Virus record (IMG/VR): IMGVR_UViG_2778261058_000002
Location: 1-5,365 of that record
DNA length: 5,365 nt
Direction: 5' to 3' (one strand)
Source of the DNA: a virus
Taxonomy: Duplodnaviria > Heunggongvirae > Uroviricota > Caudoviricetes
Part shown: positions 1 through 5,365 of the stretch, in pieces
How the letters are laid out: every line of letters starts with the position of its first letter
How positions within the stretch are numbered: position 1 is the first letter of the stretch
The notes under the pieces: model-generated
What the model was told of the DNA's origin: nothing
Databases searched by the model: none
The model's input: the letters and a program-made list of their open reading frames with translations, nothing else
Translations under genes and position numbers: made by a program

Positions 1-332
1 ACGTCTGCGCCATGTTTTGACGCATTCATGGGGGCTGCGGTGGCATAAATGGTGATCCGGCGGGGAGGACCGCCACTTGCCACCTGGCAGACGGTAAAGC
101 TGCCTTTATTTACCAGTTTTCCGTTGAATCCCAGTCCCAGCGTTAATACTGCGCCTTTTGGTGGCAGCGCCATCGTCTCACTGAACAGGGTTATCATCAG
201 TTCATCGGAGCGCTTTGTGGCAGCACCATTATCGGTATAACGCAGTTCAGCCAGCCCCCGCTTTATGGCCTTCGTGATATCCTCACCCTCTGCTGTCAGG
301 CTGAAATCCGGCTGATACTCATTCAGTCCCAT
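1..332 (-). CDS. D: Tail protein D (gpD / late control D family, baseplate hub-like), partial: N-terminal ~110 aa only, gene continues past the window start
   Basis: Minus-strand frame is open from ATG at 332..330 to the window edge (checked codon by codon, no stop). In-frame TGA at 362..360 makes 332 the first possible ATG. AAGGAG Shine-Dalgarno-like motif about 11 nt upstream. Translation begins MGLNEYQPDFSLTAEGEDITKAIKRGLAELRYTDNGAATKRSDELMITLFSETMALPPKGAVLTLGLGFNGKLVNKGSFTV..., which fits the gpD-family N-terminal pattern as I recall it. Absent from the ORF track because it is truncated by the window edge. Start overlaps the stop of X by 10 nt. Confidence 0.75.
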   Translation of the reverse strand, partial: MGLNEYQPDFSLTAEGEDITKAIKRGLAELRYTDNGAATKRSDELMITLFSETMALPPKGAVLTLGLGFNGKLVNKGSFTVCQVASGGPPRRITIYATAAPMNASKHGAD

Positions 333-541
333 AGCTGAAACGTCTCCTTTTCCTCCGGTTCATACACCCAGTCCGGCAACACGATTTCCACTCCCGCCGG
401 ATAGACCGGACCAATATCAGCCAGTCCGGGATTGGCTTCCAGTACCGCCGCCAGTGACTGGTTAAGTCCGGCGCTGCCATAGTGTCTCTGACAGATATCA
501 TCCAGCATATCGCCGTCAGTGGTCCGCCAGTTTTTCGCCAT
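323..541 (-). CDS. X: Tail protein X (gpX-like, small LysM-like tail protein), 72 aa
   Basis: ORF 541..323 with ATG start. Translation MAKNWRTTDGDMLDDICQRHYG...LEANPGLADIGPVYPAGVEIVLPDW closely parallels the P2 gpX pattern (GDTLDAICVRYYG...LAANPGLAELG...LPD) from memory. Size matches gpX (about 67-72 aa). Lies between U and D as in phiCTX/R-pyocin-type clusters. Confidence 0.85.
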   Translation of the reverse strand: MAKNWRTTDGDMLDDICQRHYGSAGLNQSLAAVLEANPGLADIGPVYPAGVEIVLPDWVYEPEEKETFQLWD

Positions 542-1004
542 AGTATTTCAGCTCCAGTGTGAACGTTTTGTTCTTCGGCGCACCGCCGGGAAGAAATGAC
601 GTGGTGTTATCTGAATAGGCAGTTGCCACGAAATACCCCATCACATCACCTGTGCTCGAGACCAGAAGATGCGGGGCCGGATTGTCATCCACCATCTGAA
701 CCAGTGTATCAAGAGCGTCCATTCCCACACCGTCACGAAATCCTGCATGCGCCATACCTTCAAGGGTTATTGTTCTGGCCCCCTTGCCGGTATACTGCAG
801 CAGGTCGTTTTTTCCGATAAGCTGTTGTTCATCCCATCGCCATTCCATCGTGCGCTTCATGGCGTTATAAGCAGCAGTATCAATACTGAATTCAAACTCA
901 CCAAACGACAGCATGACGCGGGAGGCGACATCCGTTAATGATCCCACCGCGTCCCATGCTTCACGCTCAAGCCGGTTTACGCCCCAGCCCAGCAAATCCA
1001 CCAT
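516..1004 (-). CDS. U: Tail protein U (gpU-like), about 162 aa
   Basis: ORF in track is 516..1010, but the codon at 1010..1008 is GTG; the first ATG is at 1004..1002, preceded by a GGGGGTG Shine-Dalgarno-like run (1014..1008), so 1004 is the preferred start. Size and position (directly after tape measure) match P2 gpU. Its 3' end overlaps the X start by 26 nt. Confidence 0.8.
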   Translation of the reverse strand: MVDLLGWGVNRLEREAWDAVGSLTDVASRVMLSFGEFEFSIDTAAYNAMKRTMEWRWDEQQLIGKNDLLQYTGKGARTITLEGMAHAGFRDGVGMDALDTLVQMVDDNPAPHLLVSSTGDVMGYFVATAYSDNTTSFLPGGAPKNKTFTLELKYYGEKLADH

Positions 1005-1006
1005 AT

Positions 1007-2659
1007 TCACCCCCAGAATGCATCACCATCAGTCATGCGGGAACGCTGACCAAAATTAATATCTCCCAGATTTTTCGTTACCCTGTCTGCCAGTTGTCCG
1101 GCATCCTCGCCGGGCTTCTGAGTGATGTTAAATTCCGCCCGTATCTGATATGTGGGTTTTACTTCCACCTGGCTGACACTGCCGGGTGTATACTGAAGAG
1201 CTGAGAGGGGATCCGAATTACCCTGCCCCGGATCTGCTGCATGAAGTCCATCAATGTAGGTGCGGGATTTCTCTTTTATCGCCTTAAAATCAGGTTCTTC
1301 TTTCGGCCCCAGCAGAGGGTCGAGAAATGCATCAAACTTTTTATCGTCATGATTCCAGGGGAGATAACCGCGGGTGTCTTTATAAGCCTGTACAACCTGT
1401 TTCGTCAGATCCGGATTTTGCCTGAGCAGTTCATCAAACCATTCTCCCTGGCCGTTTTTCTGCGCCACCGCTCTCGCCAGCTCCGGCGACCCCATTTTTG
1501 CCAGATATTCCAGTACCTCTCGCCGGTCCTGACGCGGATCATCTGCCAGCCCCCACTCAATGGCTTTCTGCGTTATTCCGGCCAGAACTTTTCCAAATTT
1601 CCACATCCAGGCAGCCATGTCGATCAGCGCCGGCAGGGCATCATCACGAATAAATGCCCGGATTTTTTCCAGCCCACCATTCTTAAACCAGGCCGCAAGG
1701 TCATCCGTCACCTGTTGAATATGTGGGGCAAGTTCATTACCCAGCTGTCCGCTGATTTCATCAATGGAAGAACTCAGAACATTACGGAGATTTGACAGTG
1801 CCACATGTCCCTGAACTGCGCCATCAGCCCCTGCCTTTGTCACCAGGTTATAGCGTTTCTGCTCACTGATAAGCTCCCGATAAGTTTTCCCTGACAGACG
1901 CATCCAGGTCAGAATTTTATTGGCCTCACCACCGAACAACGCATCTGCCATTCCGGCAGCCACCTGTTCATTCTCTACCTGCAGTAAGCGATCAAATAAA
2001 AATTCGACCTGCTCCTGGTTACTTTTCCCTGCCATCACCCCGGCTTTCAGTCCCAGTTTGCCAAAGACCTCCTGAATGGCCCCTTTATCCGTGGCACCAT
2101 TATCATCGTCAAAAACCTTGTTCCGGTACTCCTCAAACAGATCACCGATGTTTTCACCGTTCAGCCCCATCAGTCGGGCCAGAGAATCCCATGACGCATA
2201 GGTTTCATAATCCACCCCATAACTGCGGGCTATCCCTGCCCGCTCTGCCGTCTCCGTATTCCGGTTAAGCACAGCGGCAGTGCCCGCTGCCAGCGTCAAC
2301 CCGGAACCAACCGAAAGCCCAAAACCGGTTTTAAGGACCGTCCCCGCCCGCCCTTTCCAGCGTTCCAGGCGTTCCGCACGAGCCAGTTTACGGTTAAATT
2401 TGTCCTGCTCTCCGGTGGCATCATGAATTTTTTTACCCAGCTTTTCATACTGCTTTCGCAGATCGGTAATATCCTGTCCTGCCAGTACAGCAGCCTGAAT
2501 TTTTCGTTTCAGTACGTCCTGCTGGCGTGTCAGACGAGCCACTTCCTGTGTTGCCCCTGATAATCCGTGCTTCAACCCATCAACCGATTTTTTCCACGAC
2601 GGATCTATCGTGCCTCCGATCCGGATATTCGCTTTAAGGTTATCGCCCACCGTTGCCAT
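1007..2659 (-). CDS. T: Tail tape measure protein (gpT-like), 550 aa
   Basis: Longest ORF, ATG at 2659..2657 preceded by GAGAGGAAG Shine-Dalgarno, TGA stop at 1009..1007. Located directly after the E/E' frameshift chaperone with its start inside the E' frame, the conserved arrangement for tape measure genes. Composition is charged/Ala/Gly-rich with predicted helical stretches, typical of tape measures. Confidence 0.85.
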   Translation of the reverse strand: MATVGDNLKANIRIGGTIDPSWKKSVDGLKHGLSGATQEVARLTRQQDVLKRKIQAAVLAGQDITDLRKQYEKLGKKIHDATGEQDKFNRKLARAERLERWKGRAGTVLKTGFGLSVGSGLTLAAGTAAVLNRNTETAERAGIARSYGVDYETYASWDSLARLMGLNGENIGDLFEEYRNKVFDDDNGATDKGAIQEVFGKLGLKAGVMAGKSNQEQVEFLFDRLLQVENEQVAAGMADALFGGEANKILTWMRLSGKTYRELISEQKRYNLVTKAGADGAVQGHVALSNLRNVLSSSIDEISGQLGNELAPHIQQVTDDLAAWFKNGGLEKIRAFIRDDALPALIDMAAWMWKFGKVLAGITQKAIEWGLADDPRQDRREVLEYLAKMGSPELARAVAQKNGQGEWFDELLRQNPDLTKQVVQAYKDTRGYLPWNHDDKKFDAFLDPLLGPKEEPDFKAIKEKSRTYIDGLHAADPGQGNSDPLSALQYTPGSVSQVEVKPTYQIRAEFNITQKPGEDAGQLADRVTKNLGDINFGQRSRMTDGDAFWG

Positions 2660-3079
2660 AACATCGCTTCCTCTCTTCCGACTCCGCCAGCATCATTGCC
2701 ACAAAATCCGTATACGGCAGCGCCATCACATCTCCGGGAGACCACCCGAACCAGGCACCGGCACGCCGTATCGCTGTCAGGATGCTTTCTTCTTCCGCCG
2801 GACCGGCGGCAGCAAAAAAACATTAAACTGACGCTCCAGGGCCAGGTAATCACACGCTTCCATGTTCATCATGTCTGCCGCGTCCATCCCACACAGACCG
2901 GCAATCATATCCAGATCAGCCTCTGCTTCCGGTTTGTTACTCCGGCGATGCAACAGACGATCGCGGACAGTGGGCGCACGCATAGTGACGTGCGTGATCG
3001 TCTGTCCTGATGCGGTGACATACGGCACGGATAACACAATTTCCACGCTGCTGGCAGGAACACTGTTTTTTTCCGACAT
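2640..3079 (-). CDS. Tail assembly chaperone E+E' fusion made by programmed -1 ribosomal frameshift (E frame 3079..2814, E' frame 2813..2640); about 146 aa
   Basis: Slippery heptamer T_TTT_TTG at 2819..2813 (minus strand) sits in the E frame as GTT TTT TTG. The -1 frame is open from the slip site to a TAA at 2642..2640 (translated by hand: AAAGPAEEESILTAIRRAGAWFGWSPGDVMALPYTDFVAMMLAESEERKRCYGNGGR) and overlaps the tape measure start at 2659, as for P2 E/E'. Confidence 0.7.
2777..3079 (-). CDS. E: Tail assembly chaperone E (gpE-like), about 100 aa, unshifted product
   Basis: ORF ends at TGA 2779..2777 with C-terminus ...ERQFNVFLLPPVRRKKKAS. Track start ATG 3085 sits directly against the AGGAG (3090..3086) with no spacer; the ATG at 3079..3077 has a 6-nt spacer and is the preferred start (MSEKNSVPASS...). 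Position between tube and tape measure and the internal slippery site identify it. Confidence 0.8.
   Translation of the reverse strand: MSEKNSVPASSVEIVLSVPYVTASGQTITHVTMRAPTVRDRLLHRRSNKPEAEADLDMIAGLCGMDAADMMNMEACDYLALERQFNVFLLPPVRRKKKAS
2813..2819 (-). promoter_or_regulatory. Programmed -1 ribosomal frameshift (recoding) site, slippery heptamer T_TTT_TTG
   Basis: Plus strand 2813..2820 reads caaaaaaa, i.e. TTTTTTTG on the minus strand, phased in the E frame as G-TT|TTT|TTG. This is the canonical X_XXY_YYZ slip motif reported for tail chaperone pairs (lambda G/GT, P2 E/E'). Confidence 0.75.
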
Positions 3080-3091
3080 AAGCATCTCCTT

Positions 3092-3119
3092 TAAAAAGAA
3101 AAGGCGGCCTGAGCCGCCT
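3092..3119 (-). terminator. Rho-independent terminator-like hairpin between tube and E (minus-strand transcript)
   Basis: Perfect 7-bp GC-rich inverted repeat AGGCGGC (3102..3108) / GCCGCCT (3113..3119) with 4-nt loop, followed on the minus strand by TTTTCTTTTTAAA (3101..3090). Lies in the 59-nt gap between the tube stop (3139) and the E Shine-Dalgarno. Confidence 0.7.
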
Positions 3120-3138
3120 GAATGACAGGATCCCCGGA

Positions 3139-3657
3139 TTAAACCCGGATGATTTTTTTCAGATCCGCCAGAACATTAACGCCGTTAATACGGCGCACAA
3201 ATTCCTCCGGAATAATGCAGATGGTTTCCACACCGTCAACAGCCTGACGGTAATAACTCAGTGACATTTCCACCGTCACCGAAGCCTCTGCCTGTGACGT
3301 TGCGGGACGCGCATCCGGCGTGATACTGGTGATCATCCCCTGCAGGGTTTCCACCTGTCCGCTGGTCGCATTCCCCACCTGGTAAGCCTGGCGGACAACA
3401 ATCTCCGGCGAATAAAGCCCGGCCTGTAATCCCAGCAGCGTAAGCATGGCAACATCATAACCATAAATCTTAAACGAACAGGTCAGCGCTTCCATGCCGT
3501 CATCCACTGCCACCGGTGCATCCATTGCGCCAGTTTTGATATCCACTGTCGTGATATTAATGGCTGGCGGCGTATATTCGTGCGCCCCCTGAAGACGGAT
3601 CCCACCAGGAAGAAATAACGCCCATGCGCGCAACAGTTTTTTTTCACCCGTAATCAT
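3139..3657 (-). CDS. FII: Tail tube protein (FII-like), 172 aa
   Basis: ORF 3657..3139, ATG start overlapping the sheath TGA (ATGA overlap). Same length as P2 FII (172 aa) and directly downstream of the sheath. C-terminal region ...ICIIPEEFVRRINGVNVLADLKKI resembles the tube-family C-terminus. Confidence 0.85.
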   Translation of the reverse strand: MITGEKKLLRAWALFLPGGIRLQGAHEYTPPAINITTVDIKTGAMDAPVAVDDGMEALTCSFKIYGYDVAMLTLLGLQAGLYSPEIVVRQAYQVGNATSGQVETLQGMITSITPDARPATSQAEASVTVEMSLSYYRQAVDGVETICIIPEEFVRRINGVNVLADLKKIIRV

Positions 3658-5129
3658 ACCGTCAGCTCCTCCAGCGCCAGTTTATTGTTAATCATCGCCC
3701 GCAGTGTCAGGCGCTCCAGTGGTGACTTCGGCCCAAAGTCATAATCGATATACAACTGCCCGGCGGCCAGGGTTTCTGCTGTGTTCAGTTCATCATTCAG
3801 CCAGGCACTGCCACCGTGGATCGCGCCCAGATTTTTAAGCTGACGCATATAGGCATTAATACTGCCAAGAATGTCGTCCGCCACATCACGATCCAGCGGA
3901 CGGTCAACATAAGGCAGCATGGCCTCCTGAATACTGTCCTCTATCACATCTGCAGTACGGCGTACCGGCTCAAAACGCCACTGACTGTGGGATGAACACA
4001 GACGGTTGCCCCAGTGTTTAAAACCGTCATGCCGAATAATGGTGGAGATGTTTTCCATGTTCAGCAGGTTTGCTGTGCAGTTCTGCTCCCCGAGAATAAA
4101 TGTGTCCACCTGCTCCAGACCGGTGATATTCATCACGTCCTGGTTTGATTTGGACCACCACCATCCCTTTTCGTAATCTATGCGGGCACGCAGCCCGGCA
4201 GCACGAGCCGAATACGGACGAAATACCGTTTGCCCGCTGTCATCCGTTACTGACACGCGCGGGCGCAGCAGCTCCACGCGCCCGCCAAAGGATGCGCGCC
4301 TCTGAACCACATCCTGCGGCGTTGCCATTGAGGGAGAGTCGATATAGGCCACGGCCCGCAGCTTCGCGGCATACGTTTCCAGCGCCTTTGCCACACCATC
4401 ATCCTCACTGTAACCCGTGGCAATGAGGATGCGCGGTTGATAGCCTGTCACGCCCTTACTTTCTGTCAGCGCCTCCATGGCCTGAATCACCGCCGCACGC
4501 TGTTCGGCCTCTTTCGCCTTTGTTTTGCTTTCCGCACGCACCACAATCACCAGCGCACCGGTCTGGTCAAAAATATCACGCAGGGCCGGATATAATGTCC
4601 CGGCTGAGCCCAGTTTCCCGGCCTGAGTAATGGCCCCTGCCACCACCACCGGTGTATTGACCGGGAACGCCTCATCCTCCCCGCCGGATAACGTCAGGCT
4701 GAACGGCGACACCACATTATTTTCAGCGCTTCCTGCATTCAGGGTACTGACAGCCGCCGTCACAGGCGAATCCCCCAGCGCATTCACCACTTCAGTCACA
4801 CGGTCCGCCGTGGCGTTAATCTGGCTGTGTTCGTCCGTCCCCAGCGTTATCGTCAGGGTTGTGCCTTTCAGCGATGCCGCTGTCTGCGCGTTTTGTTCTG
4901 TGGCAGCCACAGCAACAACCGAAATCTTATTACCGGCCCGACCTTCCTGTTTCGCCGTGAAATCCAGCGCCGTTCCCAGCAGCCAGGAGCCGGCTGTGCC
5001 GGAAGCGCACACACCACCAGAGGCGTCCGGCGCAGTCCCCACCAGGCCAATCACTGCCGTGGAGATGGTCTGCACGGCAACCGTGCCTGTCGTCAGTTCA
5101 ATGGTTTCAACACCATGTAATCCGGACAT
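3654..5129 (-). CDS. FI: Contractile tail sheath protein (FI-like), 491 aa, with an extra ~110-aa N-proximal insertion
   Basis: ORF 5129..3654, ATG preceded by GGGAG Shine-Dalgarno. Several blocks match the P2 FI sheath from memory: [32 protein letters not shown] vs [50 protein letters not shown] vs [34 protein letters not shown] vs [43 protein letters not shown] vs [27 protein letters not shown]. Confidence 0.9.
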   Translation of the reverse strand: [491 protein letters not shown]

Positions 5130-5141
5130 ACATTTCTCCCA

Positions 5142-5164
5142 TAAAAAAACCGCCCTCAGGCGGT
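5142..5164 (-). terminator. Rho-independent terminator-like hairpin between tail fiber assembly gene and sheath (minus-strand transcript)
   Basis: 6-bp GC stem ACCGCC (5149..5154) / GGCGGT (5159..5164) with 4-nt loop, followed on the minus strand by seven T (plus-strand A run 5143..5149). Only about 13 nt separate the T tract from the sheath ATG. Confidence 0.65.
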
Positions 5165-5183
5165 CAGATGATTAACTTCTTTT

Positions 5184-5365
5184 TCAGGTATTTTGTGGCT
5201 GCTCAGGCCAGCTAATATTGTTGTAAGTGGTCTTATCCGTAATAGCGCTGAAATCCATCGCCTGCAGCGATTTCGCGTAAATGCGGTACGCTTTCAGCTT
5301 CTCCCTGTCTTCGTCACTGATTAATCCCAGCAGCAGGTCTTTTTCCCATTCGCTGGTCATGATGC
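5184..5365 (-). CDS. tfa: Tail fiber assembly protein (Tfa / P2 gpG-like), partial: C-terminal ~60 aa only
   Basis: Minus-strand frame open from the window edge to TGA at 5186..5184. Translation ...MTSEWEKDLLLGLISDEDREKLKAYRIYAKSLQAMDFSAITDKTTYNNISWPEQPQNT* has the C-terminal W-P-E-x-P motif and preceding helical segment typical of enterobacterial tail fiber assembly proteins. Position just upstream of the sheath matches P2 order (H-G-FI). Confidence 0.7.
   Translation of the reverse strand, partial: IMTSEWEKDLLLGLISDEDREKLKAYRIYAKSLQAMDFSAITDKTTYNNISWPEQPQNT

Follow-up and report, generated by a model that had tools for sequence, protein, structure and literature searches.

The window, the whole stretch of 5,365 nucleotides of caudoviral DNA analysed here (positions 1 to 5,365 of IMG/VR record IMGVR_UViG_2778261058_000002), carries tail genes on its minus strand, among which a short gene, E, lies between that of the tail tube (PF04985) and that of the tape measure protein, T, while gpU and gpX come after T. 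This order of sheath, tube, E, T, U and X agrees with P2-type tails. The features discussed below are as follows, with the basis of each in brackets.

3139..3657, minus strand: tail tube gene, FII-like, directly upstream of E (PF04985, 4.4e-24)
2777..3085, minus strand: E gene, zero frame, tail assembly chaperone (PF10109, phrog_166, RefSeq name)
2813..2819, minus strand: slippery heptamer T_TTT_TTG, within a T7 run at 2814..2820 (sequence, conservation, identical site in P2)
2640..2813, minus strand: E' extension, -1 frame, 57 codons plus TAA 2642..2640 (pN/pS, database ORFs)
2640..3079, minus strand: predicted E+E' fusion, of 146 aa if started at ATG 3079 and of 148 aa if started at ATG 3085 (sequence, AlphaFold model, structural match)
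2605..2853, minus strand: 82-aa +1-frame ORF, spurious (no Pfam match above threshold, pN/pS, stops)
2667..2674, minus strand: RBS-like AGAGGAAG, inside the E' coding sequence and 7 nt 5' of the T start (sequence reading)
1007..2659, minus strand: tape measure gene T, 550 aa (phrog_3654, position between E and gpU)

At its longest, the E ORF encodes 102 aa, from ATG 3085 to TGA 2779..2777. The start is likely to be ATG 3079, giving an E of 100 aa, because this codon has AAGGAG 6 nt upstream and is also the choice of RefSeq, whereas ATG 3085 is left without a spacer. The only family matched by E in the Pfam search was PF10109 (Phage_TAC_7), at 2.2e-12 and 47 bits (cutoff 25); in PHROGs it matched phrog_166 'tail protein' at 6.5e-24, and the 100-aa protein is named 'phage tail assembly protein' in RefSeq. 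T starts at ATG 2659..2657 in the frame of E and shares its first 20 nt with the end of E', and AGAGGAAG at 2667..2674 presumably serves as its ribosome binding site. T matched phrog_3654 at 7.6e-216 and tape measure PHROGs more weakly, at about 1e-9, and is called 'phage tail tape measure protein' in some RefSeq records. An earlier sequence-only reading of this DNA had proposed a tail assembly chaperone upstream of a tape measure gene, which is borne out by the membership of E in PF10109 and its position between tube and T.

In the frame of E the heptamer is read as GTT (2821-2819), TTT (2818-2816) and TTG (2815-2813), followed by 11 sense codons (LPPVRRKKKAS) and, as the 12th codon, TGA 2779..2777. 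A tandem -1 slip would set the following codon at G2813; from there 57 codons of the -1 frame are open (AAAGPAEEES...YGNGGR) up to TAA 2642..2640, which lies 17 nt beyond the T ATG, an overlap of 20 nt with the T ORF. The predicted fusion junction reads ...ERQFNVFF/AAAGPAEEES..., with QFNVFFAAAGPAEEESILTAIR as the predicted tryptic junction peptide. Phase, distance to the stop, length and end of the -1 frame had all been given in the sequence-only reading with the same coordinates and counts, and so had the junction peptide ...NVFFAAAGPAEEE.... A stop closes the -1 frame one codon ahead of the heptamer, and the conserved E' core RRAGAWFGWSPGDVMALP is not preceded by a start codon; as the sequence reads, the extension is reachable solely via the shift. 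TTTTTTG occurs once in the window on both strands counted together. Further in-phase heptamers (A_AAA_AAC at 3071, A_AAA_AAA at 3643 and others) are followed by short -1 frames and were taken as chance occurrences.

Comparison of about 55 loci, with identities of E between 37 and 100%, revealed an in-phase T_TTT_TT[G/A] in all of them, 7-11 codons before the E stop, and a -1 ORF of 50-59 aa after the heptamer, likewise in all. Within the close clade this ORF ends 20 nt inside T, one locus excepted, and in more diverged clades, where the T start could be resolved, its end lies at this start or shortly past it. The conservation that had been claimed for the -1 frameshift is thus seen in relatives down to 37% identity of E. 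More distant clades display T_TTT_TTG, T_TTT_TTA or G_GGT_TTT as heptamers; at identities of E of 35% or less, a canonical in-phase heptamer is often absent, yet these homologs still have an E'-like peptide, placed in a different frame or behind a different site. Given the codon usage of the element itself, x-Phe-Leu would be encoded as NNT TTT TTR with a probability of about 0.027 per lineage. The prophage lineage was found in 74 of 5,426 complete E. coli genomes; these 74, and independent viral contigs and species numbering in the dozens, show the identical arrangement. Six database ORFs (P0008, P0014, P0017, P0018, P0033 and P0097) match the E' part alone, with identities down to 51%. A DNA search of the phage collection gave no match, and a word-indexed protein search returned close relatives only, none of which covered E'.

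Selection was analysed in the 117-nt stretch between E and T that is left unannotated by RefSeq, using 27 unique sequences. The -1 frame showed a pN/pS of 0.28, against 1.80 and 1.86 in the other two frames; it contained no stops, against 59 and 13 in the others, and its variable sites were distributed as 7/7/24 over the three codon positions (p = 5e-4). Purifying selection acts on the -1 frame in this gap. The sequence-only reading had also stated that automated annotation often misses such products, or miscalls this one as the 82-aa ORF at 2605..2853, which lies in the wrong, +1 frame. Both parts hold: ten E. coli RefSeq feature tables annotate the short E alone, and the 82-aa ORF was ruled out as a gene by its pN/pS of 1.86 in the gap and its 13 stops in the 27 relatives, and it has no family match above threshold. 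One of the ten RefSeq records, that of strain UMNF18, contains a 45-aa fragment of E', labelled as a hypothetical protein.

The relatedness of E' to known gpE' homologs, to which the sequence-only reading had pointed as a check, was visible at one level of comparison and not at another. Direct searches with E' in Pfam, NCBIfam and PHROGs gave no match, for PF06528 none at E-values up to 10, and BLASTP against P2 E' returned nothing except a spurious match of six residues. Two of 12 clade members matched PF06528 weakly (0.052), and hhalign of E' against a clade in which 8/12 members match PF06528 gave a probability of 87% (E-value 4e-6, 31 columns). E' therefore appears to be a distant relative of P2 gpE', with a kinship visible at the profile-profile level alone. 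The AlphaFold model of the fusion obtained from an alignment is confident (mean pLDDT 84) and displays two domains, with a linker of low confidence between them where the junction lies; a model from the single sequence was unusable (pLDDT 51). The best viral structural match of the fusion model, among annotated full-length chaperones of myophages, was the 'Tape measure chaperone' of Burkholderia phage Mica (A0A873WGT4, Foldseek E-value 1.2e-6), with which the model aligns across both domains over 138 columns (the Mica protein has 137 aa), at 23% sequence identity and with a different domain orientation (rmsd 11.7 A). A sequence search of the PDB gave no match, and a fold search of the PDB found the HK97 chaperone 2OB9 only, which was non-significant.

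The closest precedent is phage P2, where a shift at TTTTTTG yields E (91 aa) and E+E' (142 aa) (PMC3091744). P2 gpE also belongs to PF10109 (1.5e-12), as does E of the window; its -1 shift is annotated at a T_TTT_TTG in identical phase, hhalign sets GF|LSPN of P2 against VF|LLPP of the window in the homologous column, and the gene likewise lies between those of the tube (FII) and the tape measure protein (T). The two E proteins are nevertheless very divergent, with an hhalign probability of just 42%, and P2 E' matches PF06528 at 2e-22, a model that E' of the window fails. Smaller differences concern the zero-frame tail past the site (six codons in P2, 11 here) and the end of the extension, which lies 8 nt inside T in P2 and 20 nt inside it here, stop codon included. 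While P2 is a Peduovirus, the window belongs to an E. coli prophage of hybrid make-up, which has a head module of the lambda-like kind and gpU-gpX-gpD after T. The nearest isolated phage, Citrobacter phage Chris1 (ON041214), has the same order of sheath, tube, E, T, U, X and D, an E in PF10109 and, by tblastn, an E'-like piece; its E+E' is unannotated too. At an identity of 37%, its site reads GTT TTT ATG and is not a canonical X_XXY_YYZ.

In comparison, gpG/gpGT of lambda shares the logic of a short chaperone and a rare -1-extended form, both encoded directly before the tape measure gene. The slippery sequence is another one, the protein family is unrelated, E of the window having matched no Pfam family but PF10109, and lambda has a non-contractile tail whereas the tail module of the window is of the contractile type. 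The tie to gpG/gpGT is one of mechanism and gene position alone. The G/GT mechanism has been described and is widely conserved; in lambda the slip frequency determines the ratio of the short to the extended form, which is about 30:1, with neither form in the virion, and shift efficiencies in P2-type phages have been reported to be two to three times that of lambda (PMC5009743).

Around the site, folds of 113 nt and 63 nt showed no downstream stimulatory structure better than shuffled sequences (z of -0.82 and +0.51), and Rfam contained no known frameshift element, its sole match being at chance level. P2, too, is reported to be without such a structure (PMC3091744). A GC mini-hairpin at 2795..2809 was rejected as a stimulator: it begins 3 nt past the heptamer, its conservation stops at the FLLPP clades, and dual coding is a confounder. 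An SD-like GGAG is present at 2837..2834, 14 nt upstream of the heptamer, and at 10-14 nt in several clades; it falls on conserved Leu-Glu/Gln-Glu codons.

Taken from sequence and comparison, E and E+E' are very probably made by a programmed -1 ribosomal frameshift of the P2 type. The signal is of a textbook kind of recoding, and what is new here is an unannotated case. Most ribosomes would read GTT TTT TTG straight on and end at TGA 2779..2777, producing E of about 100 aa. In a minority, the P-site tRNA-Phe (on TTT) and the A-site tRNA-Leu (on TTG) would together slip by -1 and pair anew with TTT TTT; reading would resume at G2813, run through 57 codons of the -1 frame and end 17 nt inside T, giving E+E' of about 146 aa. 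We infer the ribosomal nature of the slip, its frequency and its role in assembly. By analogy to lambda G/GT and P2 E/E+E', the shared E domain would coat the tape measure protein and the E' domain would recruit the tube protein, a fixed slip frequency would set the ratio of E to E+E' required by tail assembly, and both forms would be absent from the finished virion and essential to tail assembly, as in lambda and P2 (PMC5009743).

Three other explanations were considered. Transcriptional slippage, in which RNA polymerase would add one U in the run of seven, would lead to the same E+E'. The heptamer does lie in a homopolymeric T7 run, and the product would be identical (...NVFFAAAG...), so that the sequence cannot tell the two routes apart. 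Appreciable slippage by the E. coli RNA polymerase, however, takes runs of about nine or more, which counts against T7. What the clades conserve is the phase-specific X_XXY_YYZ pattern rather than the length of the run: only six T are present in Trabulsiella, in relatives L056-L064 and in P2, and L082, L084 and L087 have G_GGT_TTT, with four T. Furthermore, the P2 case is treated as translational frameshifting (PMC3091744; PMC5009743), and we regard the transcriptional route as very unlikely.

Were E' a separate small gene that starts on its own between E and T, recoding would not be needed, and the 45-aa same-frame ORF called by RefSeq in UMNF18 as well as stand-alone ORFs given by gene callers, such as P0008, P0033 and P0097, would fit this. 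In the window, as in most lineages, however, no ATG, GTG or TTG comes before codon 28 of the -1 ORF, whereas the conserved core begins around codon 15-20, ahead of any such start; an ATG at codon 12, due to a Thr-to-Met change, is present in one sub-lineage only. A gene of its own would also leave unexplained the conservation of the heptamer at synonymous sites, and the -1 ORF opens exactly one codon 5' of the heptamer. A separate gene is extremely improbable.

Hardly credible at all is that no functional element exists and that the arrangement is a coincidence or a single gene that has decayed by frameshift mutation in a defective prophage: a portal gene frameshifted in the prophage of the nearest genome points to some decay and the relative L093 has a plain in-frame fusion, but the window's six genes (1557 codons) contain just five XXXYYYZ heptamers in phase, which amounts to about 0.05 expected in a stretch of 15 codons, and a -1 frame open for at least 57 codons follows 5.8% of the in-gene positions, so that heptamer and open frame have a joint chance of about 0.003 with comparative evidence not yet counted, and the purifying selection on the -1 frame, the recurrence in the 74 genomes and the dozens of viral contigs and species, and the experimentally studied precedent of P2 stand against it as well.

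With the P2-type ribosomal frameshift as the preferred reading, relatives in PF10109 may have several ways of encoding E'. A first one would be the canonical -1 tandem slip at T_TTT_TTG/A or G_GGT_TTT; a second would be a -1 shift at the non-canonical TTTCAAG or GTT TTT ATG. In Pseudomonas relatives, a third is a putative stop-codon-dependent +1 shift at [C/T/G]TT_TGA, which is prfB-like, and the fourth is a plain in-frame fusion. It is conceivable, although we consider it doubtful, that a diverged E' subfamily missed by the profile libraries goes together with one PF10109 family in which E' is reached in no fewer than four ways. Should the +1 shift and the shifts at non-canonical sites prove real and not yet described, the family would form a natural series for studying the exchange of recoding sites while a two-product ratio is kept.

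For annotation, this means that E+E' (~146 aa), a tail product of the essential type, is missing in the RefSeq records examined for this lineage, and that the 117-nt stretch between E and T is treated as intergenic or as a 45-aa hypothetical protein. A ribosomal-slippage join would mend the records, and a profile of the E' subfamily would let pipelines detect E'. For the biology of these phages, the case confirms that selection at the nucleotide level upholds the P2-type T_TTT_TTG site across very divergent contractile-tail modules.

The sequence-only reading had proposed that a -1 programmed frameshift near the end of the short tail assembly chaperone gene E produces a fusion, E+E', overlapping the start of the tape measure gene T, and the layout described here bears this out. 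All genes of the window are carried by the minus strand:

5129..3654, minus strand: sheath protein (PF04984/PF17482)
3657..3139, minus strand: tube protein (PF04985)
3085/3079..2777, minus strand: E, 100-102 aa (PF10109, tail assembly chaperone E/41/14, E-value 2.2e-12)
2659..1007, minus strand: T, presumed tape measure protein, 550 aa (phrog_3654; weaker matches to tape measure PHROGs)
1010..516, minus strand: gpU (PF06995)
541..323, minus strand: gpX (PF05489)

E ends with CAG TTT AAT GTT TTT TTG CTG CCG CCG GTC CGG CGG AAG AAG AAA GCA TCC TGA, in which the heptamer T_TTT_TTG (2819..2813, minus strand) is read in E as GTT|TTT|TTG, with eleven sense codons between TTG and the stop at 2779..2777. 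From G2813, which a tandem slip re-reads, the -1 frame is open for 57 codons (AAAGPAEEESILTAIRRAGAWFGWSPGDVMALPYTDFVAMMLAESEERKRCYGNGGR), passes through the 117-nt gap between E and T and ends at a TAA (2642..2640) 17 nt past the tape measure ATG (2659..2657), giving an overlap of 20 nt. A -1-frame stop lies one codon upstream of the heptamer, so that E' can be entered only from about here. In the six genes of the window (1557 codons), five in-phase XXXYYYZ heptamers were counted and the -1 frame was open for at least 57 codons at 5.8% of in-gene positions; jointly, the two are expected about 0.003 times in the final 15 codons of E. Of the possible starts, ATG 3085 (longest E ORF) directly abuts AAGGAG (3091..3086) without a spacer, while 6 nt separate that motif from ATG 3079, the start chosen by RefSeq; E therefore probably comprises 100 rather than 102 aa, and E+E' 146 aa. 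Another in-phase slippery heptamer, A_AAA_AAC (3065..3071, minus strand) at E codon 5, is followed by 42 open -1 codons and is probably due to chance, since it is missing from Trabulsiella. A_AAA_AAA (3637..3643, minus strand), inside an A8 run early in the tube gene, is also in phase, with the -1 frame open for 26 codons.

Comparison of 27 unique close-clade sequences over the 117 nt of the gap revealed the following frame statistics:

Frame statistics in the gap between E and T
-1 frame (E'): variable sites 7 / 7 / 24 by codon position (chi-square p = 5e-4); pN/pS 0.28; 0 stops
Zero frame: variable sites 7 / 24 / 7; pN/pS 1.80; 59 stops
+1 frame: pN/pS 1.86; 13 stops

The 82-aa ORF at 2605..2853 lies in the +1 frame and was rightly dismissed as the wrong one. 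Relatives were drawn from diverged E. coli copies, 13 loci of species-representative genomes, 80 IMG/VR contigs and two isolated phages. Every locus with an E identity of at least 37%, a set comprising the E. coli clade, Trabulsiella guamensis and five more viral clades, carries an in-phase T_TTT_TTG (T_TTT_TTA in loci L054 and L055) 7-11 codons ahead of the E stop, and each has a -1 extension of 50-59 aa. In the close clade, one locus excepted, the extension stops 20 nt into T; in more diverged clades it stops at the T start or just past it, wherever that start was resolved. Its length is stable while the zero-frame tail varies (stop after 7, 10 or 11 codons), and in diverged clades the +1 frame, read from the same position as a control, usually closes much sooner. 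Given the codon usage of the element, writing x-Phe-Leu as NNT TTT TT[G/A] has a probability of about 0.027 per lineage, and it is nonetheless retained across many clades saturated at synonymous sites; the heptamer is itself held at the nucleotide level. Distant clades (25-38% identity) show T_TTT_TTG, T_TTT_TTA or G_GGT_TTT between one and thirteen codons ahead of the stop, with extensions of 44-66 aa bearing the motif 'LASHTGW.L.ELL.L..EEL..WL'. An exhaustive HMMER scan of database ORFs also recovered E'-only ORFs down to 51% identity (P0008, P0014, P0017, P0018, P0033 and P0097; P0018 begins with MFFAAAG) and two full-length fusion-like proteins (P0041, P0047).

A classical -1 tandem slip is the best-supported reading. 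Transcriptional slippage on the T7 run would yield an identical protein, but the feature conserved across clades is the phased heptamer and not the run length: P2 and several clades have six T, and those with G_GGT_TTT only four. Independent translation of E' from its own start is excluded for most lineages, in which the conserved E' core precedes the first possible start; one sub-lineage has a Thr-to-Met exchange at E' codon 12, from which PGAP derived a 45-aa hypothetical protein. Neither chance nor decay is compatible with so broad a conservation or with the selection signature.

In the tandem slip, the P-site tRNA-Phe (UUU) and A-site tRNA-Leu (UUG) of a minority of ribosomes would move one base back onto UUU UUU, so that E+E' would be made beside abundant E. 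If lambda G/GT is a guide, the domain common to both forms would bind the tape measure and the extension would recruit the tube protein (PMC5009743). Lambda has a ratio of 30:1, and shifting in P2-type phages is 2-3 times more efficient (PMC5009743). A GGAG (2834..2837, minus strand) lies 14 nt upstream of the heptamer, and some other clades have the stronger AGGAGG 10 nt upstream; these could be SD-like stimulators of shifting, although they coincide with conserved codons. A 6-bp GC hairpin (CCGCCG-GUC-CGGCGG, 2795..2809, minus strand), which overlaps conserved codons and could modulate shifting, begins 3 nt downstream. Stimulatory hairpins are usually spaced by 5-9 nt, and by that rule it is too close. 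No significant or conserved downstream stimulatory structure was found at the site, and an Rfam search returned no frameshift element; absence of a downstream structure matches reports for P2 and its relatives (PMC3091744).

In the P2 record (NC_001895), E+E' is annotated as a joined CDS that shifts into the -1 frame at GGT|TTT|TTG, six codons ahead of the E stop, and E' reaches 8 nt into T, stop codon included. PF10109 is common to P2 gpE and the E of the window, and profile alignment places NVF|LLPP of the window opposite VGF|LSPN of P2, which means that the shift sites are positionally homologous. A probable relation of E' to gpE' was seen at one level only: P2 E' matches PF06528 at 2e-22, whereas the E' of the window has no match to it at E-values up to 10, nor any NCBIfam or PHROG match, but its clade aligned profile to profile with P2-type E' (87% probability, E-value 4e-6; core FGWSPGDVMALPYTDF paired with FHWPPSELYPMSLTEL). 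Eight of the 12 member sequences of the P2-type profile match PF06528. Modelled by AlphaFold from 30 homologs, the fusion gave a confident structure (mean pLDDT 84), with about 95 in the E domain, a dip to 56 at junction residues 90-100 and 75-83 in the helical E' domain. Among viral predicted structures, its top match was a full-length protein of Burkholderia phage Mica, 'Tape measure chaperone' (E-value 1.2e-6, 138 columns), with other tail assembly chaperones ranking next; a PDB search gave nothing beyond a non-significant match to the HK97 chaperone 2OB9.

An E'-like peptide is encoded even by homologs that lack a canonical heptamer. The 12 PF10109 homologs of Pseudomonas (L008-L019, ~2760-2882 per locus) all end with GAG/GAA [C/T/G]TT TGA YCC, and a conserved 37-aa E'-like peptide (DPALQRLAAKRLAKELGFSSAEIMSMSFSDMIWWLTD) starts at that stop in the +1 frame, with no stops in the 12 loci and a pN/pS of 0.29 vs 1.3-1.5 in the other frames. 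Such an arrangement suggests a +1 frameshift that depends on the stop codon, as at CUU_UGA in prfB. Forward and backward shifts are both known in tail chaperone genes in general (PMC10885494); no description of the CUU_UGA form in such genes was found in the literature searched. Viral contigs L078, L088 and L090 have an E'-like peptide (DLWRAAGLLARWFRFQPSEIDDL..LRRWLDVAREQIKGE) in the +1 frame, possibly reached by a shift at TTT CGG (candidate site GCC TTT CGG G), and in L093 (1351-1722) both domains form one 123-aa in-frame ORF abutting the tape measure gene. A -1-frame E'-like peptide lies behind TTTCAAG in L065-L067, L069-L073, L077, L079, L080 and L083, and in L094-L104 and Citrobacter phage Chris1 (L105, 2740-2760) the -1 frame is E'-like without a canonical X_XXY_YYZ heptamer. 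The candidate sites of these -1 relatives (GCT/GAT TTC AAG, GCT TTT CTC, GTT TTT ATG) suggest P-site-only or otherwise non-canonical slippage.

The window is 99.9% identical to a prophage of E. coli A36 (701 bases tested), and 74 of 5,426 complete E. coli genomes carry related copies, at 80-99.9% identity. The A36 prophage (L001 1..19707), a mosaic element, adjoins ssrA (tmRNA), with integration there, and its portal gene is flagged as frameshifted (L001 1..614). Its head module is lambda-like (portal, S49 peptidase, decoration protein, major capsid, FI); its tail module is P2-type and contractile, with a P2-type baseplate and gpU-gpX-gpD following T. In the window, the presumed tape measure protein (1007..2659) belongs to no Pfam or NCBIfam family, its PHROG is unnamed, and most RefSeq records call it a 'hypothetical protein'; its 550 aa are short for a myophage, P2 T being annotated at 19850..22297 (~815 aa). 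In Trabulsiella guamensis (L007 2937..4590), T is apparently split into ORFs of 88 aa (2937..3203) and 492 aa (3112..4590); either the gene is disrupted or the assembly is at fault. Between the tube stop (3139) and the E start, a terminator-like hairpin (3093..3119, minus strand; AGGCGGCTCAGGCCGCCT then TTTCTTTTTA) could leave E, T, U and X less transcribed than sheath and tube.

The suspicion that annotation misses the long form was confirmed by the feature tables of ten E. coli records, in which RefSeq has only the short 'phage tail assembly protein'; summary feature labels of other E. coli records hold nothing resembling the longer form, and the gap is without annotation in most RefSeq records examined. 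The 45-aa RefSeq 'hypothetical protein' of UMNF18 (L004 723..860, WP_156841731.1) is the C-terminal part of E', called because of the Thr-to-Met exchange. A word-indexed search of 5.8 billion protein sequences gave no entry spanning E and E' for the lineage of the window, and E+E' is likewise unannotated in Chris1, the nearest isolated phage. The E+E' of the window is thus real, of a well-known kind and missing from annotation, and its identification is correct and, though unsurprising, useful to annotation.
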